Below the pieces are notes generated by a model. It saw only the letters and a program-made list of their open reading frames with translations, was not told the DNA's origin and did not search any database. A DNA stretch of 64,000 nt from Escherichia coli (GTDB lineage Bacteria; Pseudomonadota; Gammaproteobacteria; Enterobacterales; Enterobacteriaceae), in assembly GCF_041886205.1 (NCBI RefSeq), contig NZ_CP169029.1, one strand, 5' to 3'. Position 1 is the first letter of the stretch. Each line of letters starts with the position of its first letter. Shown here one piece after another: positions 52,315 through 54,537 of this stretch. The position numbers and the translations under genes were made by a program.

Positions 52315-54537
52315 TTAGTCCTCGTTTACAACCTTTTGCTGGGCGGCTTTTTTGGCCTGAACGCGGGCAATAGCCGCGGCAACTGCCGCTTTGCGCGGAT
52401 CAACCTGTTCTTCTGGTTCTGCATTAGCCTGTTGCTGTTCCAGCTTGCGTGCTTTGGCGCGTGCAATAGCCGCTTCGACGGCAGCTTTGCGCGGATCAAC
52501 CTGTTCTTCTGGCTCCGCATTAGCCTGTTGCTGTTCCCGTTTGCGCGCTTTGGCACGGGTAATAGCGGCTTCGACGGCGGCTTTGCGCGGATCGACCGGT
52601 TCTTCTGGTTCCGCATTAGCCTGTTGCTGTTCCAGCTTGCGTGCTTTGGCACGGGCAATAGCGGCTTCGACGGCGGCTTTGCGCGGATCGACCTGTTGTT
52701 CTGGCTCTGCGTTAGCCTGTTGCTGTTCCAGCTTGCGTGCTTTGGCACGGGCAATAGCGGCTTCGACGGCGGCTTTGCGCGGATCGACCTGTTGTTCTGG
52801 TTCCGCATTAGCCTGTTGCTGTTCCAGCTTGCGCGCTTTGGCGCGGGCGATAGCTGCTTCAACGGCAGTTTTACGTGGATCAGCAACGGTTGCTGCGTCG
52901 TTAGTTTGCTGCAGTTCTGCCTGTTTCGCTCTGGCTTGCGCTTTACGGGCTTCCCGTGCTGCAATAATTGCACTGTTATCCGGGCGTTCGCCCGCTTTAA
53001 TCACAATAGGCTGTGTAGCCTGGGCCTGTTTCTCTTTCACCCGCGCCAGAGCGGCAGCAATCGCATCTTTATCTTTGGCTGCAGGTTGAACGGCTGCGCT
53101 CTTATGTCGTTCAAGGCGAGCCGCTTTTTCGCGCTCCAGACGAGCCTGGCGCGCTTCGAAACGCGCTTTGGCTTCTGCGGCGCGCTTTTCTTCCTGACGA
53201 ATAGCCGCAATTTCAGCTTTTTCCTGACGGAAATATTGCACCAGGGGAATATTGCTCGGGCAAACCCACGCGCAAGCCCCACATTCAATGCAATCAGCAA
53301 TGTTATGCGTGGTAGCTTTATCGTGTTGCTGACCTTTGCTGAACCAGTACAACTGTTGCGGCAAAAGATCCGCAGGGCAGGCGTCAGCACAGGCGCTACA
53401 CCGGATGCAGCTTTGTTCTTCCTGTGGTTCGCCAAGTTCATTGGCAGAGGGAGCCAACAGACAGTTGGTAATCTTTACGACCGGGACATCCAGCCATGGC
53501 AAGGTAAAGCCCATTAGCGGGCCACCCATAATCACCATTTGATCGGCAGAGGGGCAGAATCCGGCATCATTCAATAAATGACGCACTGGCGTCCCCAGCC
53601 GTGCCCAGACGTTGCCCGGGCGAGCGATTGCTTCGCCAGTCAGGGTTACAACACGCTCGGTAATCGGCTCGCCATCAATAACGGCACGTTTCACTGCATA
53701 AGCAGTGCCGACGTTTTGCATTAATACGCCGATATCGGATGAACGCCCGCCATGTGGAACCTGCTTCCCGGTCAGAATGTAGGTTAATTGTTTAGCACCG
53801 CCAGAAGGATATTTGGTTGGAATCACCCGCAGAGAAATATCGTTAGAGTCCGCCAGCACCGCGCGCAGCATGGAAATCGCCTGCGGTTTGTTATCTTCAA
53901 TGCCGATAAGAATTTCGCGTGGCTGCAGAATATGCGCAAGAATGCGAATACCCTCTACGACCTGAGCCGCGCAATCCTGCATCAAACGGTCATCGGCGGT
54001 AATGTACGGCTCGCACTCAGCCGCGTTGATAATCAACGTTTCAATCTTATCTCCGCCACCCTGCAATTTAACGCCTGTCGGGAATCCTGCACCGCCCAGC
54101 CCGGCAACACCAAACTGATGTATGCGCTCGATTAACTCTTCGCGACTGCGAGTGCGATAATCGGCCCAGCCGTCGCGCGGGATCCAGCAGTCTTCACCAT
54201 CGGCATCAATAATCACGCTTAATTCAGCTAAAGCTGAAGGATGAGCCGTAGAGTGGGGCGCAATAGCCGTAACGGTACCCGAGGTGGGCGCGTGAACAGG
54301 CAGCATTTTGCCGCGACCACGGGTAAGCGGCTGGCCGCGCAATACTTTATCGCCGACGCTAACGCACAACTCACCTTCAGCGCCAATATGCTGTTTCAGT
54401 GGAATAACAAAACGCTGCGCCAGGGGTACCTGGCGCAGGGGTGTACCGTTGGACTGGGTTTTCATCTCCGGTGGATGGATGCCGCCGTTGAAATCCCAGA
54501 TTTTATTTTTTCTGAATGCAGAGAATAACTTAAGCAT
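52315..54537 (-). CDS. rsxC: Rsx/Rnf electron-transport complex subunit C (NADH/FMN and 4Fe-4S binding, with C-terminal repeat tail)
   Basis: 740-aa ORF with Cys clusters ([24 protein letters not shown]) and a C-terminal low-complexity repeat region. Confidence 0.9.
52345..52900 (-). repeat. 96-bp in-frame tandem repeat array (about 5 units plus degenerate flanks) encoding the RsxC C-terminal tail
   Basis: The motif gcgcggatcaacctgttcttctgg recurs at 52393, 52489, 52585, 52681 and 52777 (period 96 bp); encoded unit is [32 protein letters not shown]. Confidence 0.85.

Follow-up and report, generated by a model that had tools for sequence, protein, structure and literature searches.

The 3' quarter of rsxC in this Escherichia coli sequence carries what is very probably an in-frame minisatellite with a unit of 96 bp (32 codons), and the locus is, with the same high confidence, the established VNTR typing marker ms11. 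An earlier note made from the letters alone had described tandem repeats at this place; that finding is correct but already known. The rsxC locus has been used in E. coli/Shigella strain typing since 2008 and an Erwinia counterpart was described in 2023, so that nothing in the finding as it was stated is new. The encoded peptide is a different matter, as each unit contains a helix motif that is conserved across genera and almost confined to the tails of RsxC/RnfC proteins.

The rsxC array and the marker ms11

Within the window (the whole stretch of 64,000 nucleotides that was analysed), the gene that carries the array is rsxC, as judged from profile matches and gene order. Its product matched the NCBIfam RsxC equivalog NF003454 with 868.7 bits (cut-off 345, aa 12-570) and TIGR01945 rnfC with 596.9 bits (cut-off 245.95, aa 13-445). 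Pfam placed PF13375 (RnfC_N), PF01512 (Complex1_51K), PF10531 (SLBB) and PF12838/PF00037 (4Fe-4S) in aa 14-430, and the full RnfC domain set is present: the RnfC_N barrel-sandwich, the NuoF-like FMN/NADH domain, SLBB and the 2x[4Fe-4S] ferredoxin. The solved RnfC chains 8ahx_C, 7zc6_C and 9eri_C can be aligned to the product. The neighbouring minus-strand ORFs of 192, 352, 206 and 231 aa correspond to rsxB, rsxD, rsxG and rsxE as annotated in the homologous K-12 region, which gives the gene its position in the rsxABCDGE operon, and its TAA stop adjoins the rsxD ATG at 52312-52314. The protein consists of an RnfC-type core (aa 13-445) and a C-terminal tail (aa 446-740), in which the array lies. 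The features are as follows.

52315..54537, minus strand: rsxC CDS, 740 aa plus stop (ORF listing, NCBIfam and Pfam matches, rsxC annotation in homologous E. coli records)
52882..53202, minus strand: non-repeated part of the tail, aa 446-552 (AlphaFold2, 8ahx_C alignment), conserved in the tail alignment
roughly 53062-53202, minus strand: predicted long basic/acidic helix, aa 446 to ~483
52987-53049, minus strand: predicted degenerate motif-like helix, aa 497-517
52894-52959, minus strand: predicted degenerate motif-like helix, aa 527-548
52364..52882: 96-bp tandem array, 5.4 copies, very probably the repeat of VNTR ms11 (Tandem Repeats Finder with shuffle control)
52786..52881, minus strand: unit 1, aa 553-584, the edge unit and most diverged full unit (85-88% identity to the others)
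52690..52785, minus strand: unit 2, aa 585-616
52594..52689, minus strand: unit 3, aa 617-648
52498..52593, minus strand: unit 4, aa 649-680
52402..52497, minus strand: unit 5, aa 681-712
52315..52401, minus strand: diverged terminal motif copy, aa 713-740, with the TAA stop
53013..53032, minus strand: ms11 forward primer site, GAAACAGGCCCAGGCTACAC, exact
52267..52286, plus strand: ms11 reverse primer site, CTGGCGCTGGTTATGGGTAT, exact, inside rsxD
52210..53517, plus strand: antisense ORF of 435 aa, judged spurious (no Pfam match, overlap with a well-supported gene, low-complexity repeat product)
52391..53089, plus strand: antisense ORF of 232 aa, Cys/Ser/Ala-rich, judged spurious
52326..52973, minus strand: alternative-frame ORF of 215 aa, judged spurious (Pfam noise below threshold only)

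Tandem Repeats Finder, run on the window, confirmed a single head-to-tail array with a fixed unit (period 96, 5.4 copies, 90% matches, no indels) and a score of 800, against a top score of 57 in 100 triplet shuffles of 50000-55000. The array claimed in the earlier note was therefore real, while the limits given for it, 52345-52900, were about 20 bp too wide at either end. The claim of at least five 32-codon units also holds: the reading frame contains five, followed by a diverged 28-codon terminal copy at 52318-52401, which has about 60% DNA identity to the full units and is retained in other genera in the tail alignment. A GAGGA Shine-Dalgarno-like sequence sits within the last codons of this copy, ahead of rsxD. 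To call the DNA repeats near-identical or perfect was an overstatement, since the full units are 85.4-94.8% identical in pairs, with mostly synonymous differences, and the longest exact run at an offset of 96 is 89 nt. The translation bears out an Ala/Lys/Gln/Glu-rich tail, the helical character of which is an AlphaFold2 prediction. It was likewise correct that the repeats generate long, apparently spurious antisense ORFs, as the two on the plus strand (435 and 232 aa) match no family; a Pfam scan of the overlapping ORFs found no protein family above threshold.

The identification with ms11 relies on its primer pair, taken from Table 1 of PMC8215070. Each primer has one exact site in the window, where none is expected by chance, and the two sites flank the array. 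The predicted amplicon is 766 bp; with the published unit of 96 bp and offset of 286 bp, (766-286)/96 gives 5.0 units. Table 1 of PMC11773471 contains the entry "ms11 (rsxC)", and the marker belongs to the Shigella/E. coli MLVA panel of Gorgé et al. 2008 (J Clin Microbiol 46:1026), as that work is cited in PMC8215070. There is no DNA-level difference between ms11 and the array in the window. In the typing papers (PMC8215070, PMC11773471) ms11 serves as a size marker only and the encoded peptide is not discussed. Other in-frame VNTRs stand beside it in Table 1 of PMC11773471, namely CVN001/ms07 (ftsK) and CVN004 (tolA). Like ms11, these are in-gene minisatellites that serve as size markers in the same schemes. 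Their repeats presumably encode low-complexity linker regions, whereas the rsxC unit holds a sharply conserved, family-specific helix motif.

The helix motif and the role of the tail

Each unit encodes a conserved basic helix of 18-23 residues followed by an acidic, Pro-containing linker of ~9 residues, with a mean charge of +4.5 for the motif and -4.5 for the spacer. The motif has a near-invariant core of 10 residues, usually with DP[RK]K ahead of it. AlphaFold2, run on a shallow alignment of 12 rows, predicted 23-residue helices joined by 9-residue linkers with a pLDDT below 50 (pTM 0.27), and a helix at aa 432-483 with a pLDDT above 90. On this prediction the tail would be a flexible chain of helices and linkers that extends from the cytoplasmic RsxC subunit past its long C-terminal helix. 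A continuous helical rod (coiled coil or single alpha-helix) was rejected on the predicted helix-linker pattern and the pTM of 0.27, with the reserve that the pattern is itself predicted, and from a shallow alignment. A membrane-binding amphipathic helix was also rejected: against the comparison threshold for membrane-binding helices, the Eisenberg hydrophobic moment in 18-residue windows of the unit is only 0.14-0.25, and the mean hydrophobicity is below 0.

The motif is highly specific to this protein family. An exhaustive profile search yielded 227 matches among 1.84 billion representatives, and RsxC/RnfC proteins accounted for all 10 of the top-ranked and for 25 of the 26 long matches that were scanned. 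The motif therefore appears almost confined to RsxC/RnfC tails, with 4-13 matched stretches per protein and a period that varies between proteins. A word-index protein search with a 44-residue query matched only fragments shorter than 80 aa. The core recurs in many genera, among them Vibrio, Aeromonas, Pseudoalteromonas and Lonepinella, while the spacers are unrelated; the motif is present in an RnfC fragment of Vibrio cholerae, in a protein of Lonepinella koalarum and in Aeromonas proteins annotated as RnfC/RsxC. Across genera the helix is thus conserved, whereas the sequence and length of the spacer (about 14-59 residues) are not, and the number of motifs ranges from 2 to 13. In RnfC of Azotobacter vinelandii (8AHX chain C, 496 residues), which aligns over aa 15-498, the C-terminal end corresponds to aa 446 to ~498 of the E. 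coli tail; the chain stops where the E. coli repeats start, and the motif array is absent from the alignment. The C-terminal helix of that protein contacts RnfB and RnfH, and its function is described as not yet understood (review PMC12174285).

A close counterpart of the array is found in Erwinia amylovora, in which RsxC contains a variable 40-residue tandem repeat present in 0-5 copies among strains and proposed as a VNTR marker (PMC10587187). The gene is orthologous, the repeat starts at the same position (residue 553) and the two units are almost alike in their first half. The period, however, is 40 rather than 32 residues, and the spacer is Ala/Pro-rich where that of E. coli is Gln/Glu-rich. 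The conservation of the motif across genera is not remarked upon in that study. As natural strains of Erwinia amylovora have 0 to 5 units, many copies are not essential in that organism.

The repeat peptide is under purifying selection as judged from codon comparisons. Between units, pS was 0.29-0.31 and pN 0.025-0.030, so that pN/pS is ~0.1 (0.08-0.10 overall and 0.04 in the motif half), a ratio that gene conversion may distort when paralogous units are compared. Searches for a known function gave little. When the tail by itself and a peptide with two motifs were scanned against Pfam, nothing meaningful came up at E values up to 10, and a PDB sequence search with two units gave only chance matches (E ~1) and no solved structure with the motif. 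Literature searches on RnfC/RsxC C-terminal repeats, Rsx cryo-EM and rnfC with VNTR yielded nothing on the function of the tail.

The preferred reading, which is put forward tentatively, is that the tail may act multivalently, as a series of short helices at which some partner docks, with a loosely constrained copy number. Because the motif is conserved across genera and the length and sequence of the spacer are not, the comparison suggests that motif count rather than length is the property under selection, if any is selected. It is a speculative and rather doubtful step further to regard the helix motif, in 2-13 copies on acidic linkers, as an undescribed multivalent docking module. Such a module might capture an acidic soluble redox partner (ferredoxin or flavodoxin) or another Rsx/Rnf client, or might cluster complexes through charge blocks.

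An alternative that also seems somewhat unlikely is a neutral low-complexity expansion, that is, a self-propagating minisatellite tolerated in a dispensable tail whose peptide has no specific role. The broad tolerance of copy number (3-7 in E. coli, 0-5 in Erwinia amylovora) would fit this, as would an in-frame rsxC deletion in a lab-evolved strain and the position of the tail outside any Pfam family, solved structure or reported phenotype. However, the low pN/pS, above all in the motif half, is not what neutrality predicts, nor is a near-invariant 10-residue core that persists across many genera among unrelated spacers. The conserved pattern of basic motif and acidic spacer and the lack of frameshifts among the annotated loci opened also argue against it.

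The earlier note had proposed instead that the tail is a helical spacer, the copy number of which tunes the reach of RsxC or a partner in the SoxR-reducing complex. RsxC reportedly interacts with SoxR, which was not counted as evidence. The prediction makes most of each unit helical, lineages differ in copy number, and the tail starts at the C-terminal helix that, in the structure from A. vinelandii, touches RnfB and RnfH. Nevertheless, a length-tuned tether is improbable. At its far end the tail carries neither a redox cofactor nor a recognised domain, which leaves a tether without an obvious load, and low-confidence Pro-containing linkers interrupt the chain every 32 residues. A conserved helix with spacers and motif numbers that vary is the opposite of what selection on length would leave, and the occurrence of the motif in Vibrio cholerae, Lonepinella koalarum and Aeromonas shows that it is not restricted to the Rsx system of E. 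coli.

Copy number among E. coli genomes

The copy number was surveyed in two spread samples (118 rows) from 5,426 complete E. coli genomes. With the array in the query, megablast gave fragmented and ambiguous places (median 8 per genome); flank-only BLAST queries were used instead and gave clean spans. It was found that 1 row has 3 full units, 27 have 4, 68 have 5, 10 have 6 and 12 have 7. The modal allele of 5 units, which is also that of the window, makes up ~58% of the sampled genomes, a percentage that is approximate since the samples are systematic draws from the BLAST ranking and the database is biased to clinical clones. Thirteen loci were opened, and the annotated alleles among them fall into seven intact length classes (2031, 2127, 2223, 2319, 2325, 2328 and 2421 nt), all in frame, with products of 676-806 aa; no frameshifted rsxC was found among these. 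Lengths differ by whole multiples of 96 bp, apart from an additional 3-bp Gln codon in some units (a 99-bp variant unit). The expectation that copy number, and with it the length of rsxC (2031-2421 nt), differs among E. coli strains was thus borne out, with 3-7 full units in the 118 rows and the 13 loci, and the reported ms11 alleles of 4.5-7 (amplicons of 718-958 bp in the typing literature) agree with this range. The predicted instability was right only in part: the number varies, but not rapidly, as each clone sampled is uniform over independent genomes (5 units in K-12 derivatives, 6 in O157:H7, 7 in O25b:H4 strains).

That this variation is an assembly artefact, through collapse or expansion of the repeat, is hardly credible. 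Public protein sets contain many partial RsxC sequences that stop within the repeat (e.g., clusters of 184 and 304 member sequences), from which it follows that draft assemblies break there. Yet within a clone the copy number is reproducible over independent complete genomes, PCR-based ms11 amplicon sizes cover the same range independently, and the length differences keep exactly to the unit and the Gln codon. The same protein accessions also recur: two strains with 7 units, of which one is O25b:H4, share WP_000915728.1; WP_000915707.1 is found both in an O157:H7 strain and in an isolate from a river; and O104:H4 shares WP_000915770.1 with a ground-beef isolate.

The unit sequences change as well as their number. 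The array diverges roughly ten times faster than its flanks. Between the window and K-12, rsxC has 16 differences, all in gene nt 1800-2202, while the first 1799 nt are identical and the 1500 bp downstream have 6. For 10 of these 16, another K-12 unit has the base of the window at the corresponding offset. The 43 units of eight strains fall into 39 different DNA types, and a match of 100% identity to positions 52000-53300 of the window is found in only 2 of 5,424 genomes. These patterns suggest that units may be gained and lost through unequal homologous recombination or replication slippage between units of 85-95% identity, and that gene conversion would shuffle variants between them. Changes in the array would always leave rsxC and the rsxC-rsxD junction intact, since the unit length is divisible by three and the diverged terminal copy with the ribosome-binding site of rsxD stays in place.

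In-gene tandem repeats are the classic substrate of phase variation and the rsxC stop adjoins the rsxD start, but a contingency locus in which repeat changes switch rsxC or rsxD on and off is very implausible. Units of 96 or 99 bp preserve the reading frame, and the CDS is intact in each of the seven annotated length classes. The terminal copy with the ribosome-binding site of rsxD is not in the variable part, and each sampled clone is uniform in copy number.

In practical terms, short-read assemblies often break at this locus and databases hold hundreds of "partial RsxC" entries that end in the repeat; differences in rsxC length from strain to strain should not be taken for gene damage. Should the helix motif turn out to act as a docking element, this would be relevant to the encounter of the Rnf/Rsx complex with its soluble substrates, and the copy-number alleles of E. 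coli (3-7) would alter the efficiency of electron transfer or how fast SoxR is turned off.

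The repeat array and its host gene

The earlier note had described near-identical, even perfect, 96-bp tandem repeats within rsxC. The array was confirmed by Tandem Repeats Finder (TRF), but the wording was too strong, as DNA identity among the full units is 85.4–94.8% and exact identity at a 96-nt offset extends over 89 nt at most. The highest score in 100 triplet shuffles of 50000–55000 was 57, which places the array far beyond chance. Elsewhere in the 64-kb window TRF reports just one array, formed by two tRNA genes.

Repeat arrays, host gene and overlapping reading frames
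52364–52882, within rsxC: 96-bp tandem array (TRF period 96, 5.4 copies, 90% matches, no indels, score 800)
52315–54537, minus strand: rsxC ORF of 740 codons, containing the array
14881–15038, minus strand: two tandem tRNA-Val (GAC) genes (TRF period 81, 2 copies)
52210–53517, plus strand: antisense mechanical ORF overlapping rsxC
52391–53089, plus strand: antisense mechanical ORF overlapping rsxC
52326–52973, minus strand: alternative-frame mechanical ORF overlapping rsxC

Judged by its sequence, the ORF at 52315–54537 is RsxC. It scores 868.7 bits with the NCBIfam RsxC equivalog model (cut-off 345), the Pfam RnfC_N, NuoF-like FMN, SLBB and 4Fe-4S domains cover aa 14–430 of its product, and neighbouring ORFs match rsxB, rsxD, rsxG and rsxE. 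The last 8 nt of the upstream rsxB ORF (54530–55108) are shared with the start of rsxC, at 54530–54537, which fits translational coupling along the operon. The reading frame splits the array into five units of 32 codons each (aa 553–712), followed by a diverged terminal copy (aa 713–740). The three other ORFs have no family match above threshold, overlap a strongly supported gene and encode a repeated low-complexity string; they are judged to be spurious, as the earlier note had proposed.

Copy number and the typing marker ms11

The length classes of annotated, intact rsxC genes in complete E. coli genomes run from three to seven full units, which bears out the expectation that copy number varies between strains.

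Length classes of intact rsxC genes
2031 nt, 676 aa, 3 full units: strain E10
2127 nt, 708 aa, 4 full units: O104:H4, strain 4, E700025
2223 nt, 740 aa, 5 full units: window, K-12
2319 nt, 772 aa, 6 full units: O157:H7, RM19259
2325 or 2328 nt, 774 or 775 aa, 6 full units, some with an extra Gln codon: isolate 127, LF82
2421 nt, 806 aa, 7 full units: O25b:H4, Ecol_276

A population survey was made with the flanks, without the array, as the query; array length was the genome span minus the flank length. Two evenly spaced samples were drawn along the ranked list of 5,424 genomes with a match, making 118 rows in all, with two records in both samples. Five units were found in 68/118 rows, four in 27/118, seven in 12/118, six in 10/118 and three in 1/118. 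Every sampled K-12 derivative (DH10B, C600, J53 and an MG1655 derivative) has five units and every sampled O157:H7 genome six, while seven were found in both O25b:H4 genomes seen and in all the other sampled genomes sharing their flank score. The array is polymorphic, yet uniform inside each of these sampled clones. For practical purposes, phase variation is excluded by the annotated intact alleles and the unit survey, and an assembly artefact as the source of the variation by the annotated alleles and the flank-only survey.

Spans deviated by 1 nt in several genomes. In the one examined, ETEC6333, the cause lies not in the array but in rsxD: seven consecutive G in the window (52041–52047; C on the coding strand) are reduced to six in this strain, and its rsxD is annotated as frameshifted. 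The 1-nt differences of several other complete genomes fall in the same flank. Either a homopolymer sequencing error or a genuine frameshift hotspot could account for this. In public protein collections, "partial" RsxC/RnfC entries with a terminus inside the repeat are very numerous (clusters of 184 and 304 E. coli and 125 Salmonella member sequences, for example), which indicates that draft assemblies commonly break at the array. Protein entry P0111, annotated as DUF1192 family, appears to be rsxC-like repeat DNA translated out of frame.

The array is the variable-number tandem repeat ms11, so the observation is correct and already known. The ms11 primers (PMC8215070, Table 1, credited there to Gorgé et al. 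2008) match the window exactly at 52267–52286 and 53013–53032, flanking the array on both sides. With the published unit of 96 bp and offset of 286 bp, the predicted 766-bp amplicon corresponds to 5.0 units. One study of 80 isolates reported alleles of 4.5–7 and amplicons of 718–958 bp, in agreement with the genome survey. The label "ms11 (rsxC)" is given explicitly in PMC11773471, and the RsxC of Erwinia amylovora has a counterpart of 40 residues, in 0 to 5 copies, that likewise begins at residue 553 and was proposed as a VNTR marker (PMC10587187). Together with the primer match and unit size, these reports establish that the variable rsxC repeat was known.

DNA change within the array

Compared with K-12, the window has no differences in the first 1799 nt of rsxC, 16 in gene nt 1800–2202, every one of them confined to the array and its terminal copy, and six in the 1500 bp downstream. 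For ten of the 16, another K-12 unit has the window's base at the equivalent position, which is consistent with exchange between units. In line with this, 43 units from across eight strains comprise 39 distinct DNA types. Divergence is greatest at the array edges, in the first and last copies; diverged edge copies are the usual signature of unequal exchange homogenising the array interior. From such sequence patterns, whole units would be gained or lost through unequal recombination or slippage. The repeat mosaics of the window and K-12 differ at equal array length, and only 2/5,424 genomes (strains 6EVA and wlxctx60) match window 52000–53300 perfectly, with 11/5,424 at ≥99% identity; the window therefore does not carry the standard K-12 sequence at this locus.

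Since 96 = 32 × 3, the reading frame is kept whatever the change in unit number. The TAA stop of rsxC (52315–52317) directly adjoins the rsxD ATG (52312–52314), and a Shine-Dalgarno-like GAGGA falls within the final Asn-Glu-Asp codons of rsxC, which belong to the fixed terminal copy (window 52312–52330). Unit changes would thus leave the rsxC stop and rsxD start untouched, and this arrangement may help to explain the conserved C-terminal "NED" in related genera. A non-frameshift rsxC deletion, its position within the gene not given, was reported in a lab-evolved ATCC 25922 line.

In E. coli XL10-Gold (NZ_CP081008.1), rsxC is annotated as a pseudogene, cut at gene nt 1800 inside unit 2 (window 52738/52739). 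There, 54 bp (1947–2001 of the XL10-Gold locus), presumably the left end of IS2, link the truncated rsxC to a truncated dicB. The opposite gene orientation points to an inversion, or to a rearrangement mediated by an IS, with the break inside the array.

The encoded tail and its possible function

Differences between units are mainly synonymous (pS ~0.30, pN ~0.03, ratio 0.08–0.10), which indicates that the peptide is constrained; pN/pS is 0.04 in codons 1–18 and 0.14 in codons 19–32. A near-invariant motif, D-P-[RK]-K-A-A-[VI]-[AE]-A-A-I-A-R-[AV]-K-A-[KR]-K, occurs in 2–6 copies per RsxC/RnfC tail in many genera, namely Citrobacter, Enterobacter, Kluyvera, Klebsiella, Salmonella, Yersinia, Edwardsiella, Dickeya, Providencia, Aeromonas, Pseudoalteromonas, Vibrio (V. 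cholerae) and Lonepinella. In the named sequences the spacers between copies are unrelated and the periods are 29–72 residues. Over 19 tails, mean net charge is +4.5 for the motif and −4.5 for the spacer, irrespective of spacer length. In an exhaustive search of 1.84 billion representative proteins, a 30-position profile from 51 motif instances matched only 227 at E ≤ 0.001. The ten top-ranked matches and sixteen other long ones (570–3132 aa) were scanned, and 25/26 were RsxC/RnfC, with 3–13 matched stretches near the C-terminus at periods of 35–108 residues; the exception, of 3132 aa, matches part of the profile only. A shorter match, P0280 (322 aa), carries only a Gly_transporter domain.

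An AlphaFold2 model built on a shallow 12-row alignment predicts a long confident helix at aa 432–483 and, beyond it, eight helices of 21–28 residues. Five of these, each of 23 residues, correspond to the full repeat units and are joined by linkers of ~9 residues with pLDDT below 50; no tertiary packing is predicted (pTM 0.27). The repeats are covered by no family in a Pfam scan and by no chain in a PDB sequence search. The chain of the solved A. vinelandii RnfC stops at a point corresponding to about residue 498 of the E. coli protein. It has a long C-terminal helix in contact with RnfB and RnfH, the function of which is described as not understood in a recent review (PMC12174285).

We hold with high confidence that the array is an in-frame minisatellite, that it changes in steps of whole units and that the tail it encodes is modular. 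As to function, we tentatively favour multivalent docking: the tail would present several copies of a short docking helix, carried on flexible acidic linkers beside the RnfB side of the complex, to a hypothetical partner. Neutral, tolerated expansion is somewhat less probable: copy number is indeed widely tolerated, but the synonymous excess among units and the conservation of the motif in many genera are hard to reconcile with it. The length-tuned tether proposed in the earlier note is more doubtful still, as conservation lies in the helix sequence, not in spacing or total length, and the far end of the tail carries nothing to be tethered. Overall, that note's observation is confirmed and its interpretation partly supported. 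The hydrophobic moment (0.14–0.25) gives no support to a membrane-binding amphipathic helix. No description of the family-wide, charge-patterned helix motif was found in the literature searched, and the motif is a reasonable, if small, lead for researchers of the Rnf/Rsx complexes.
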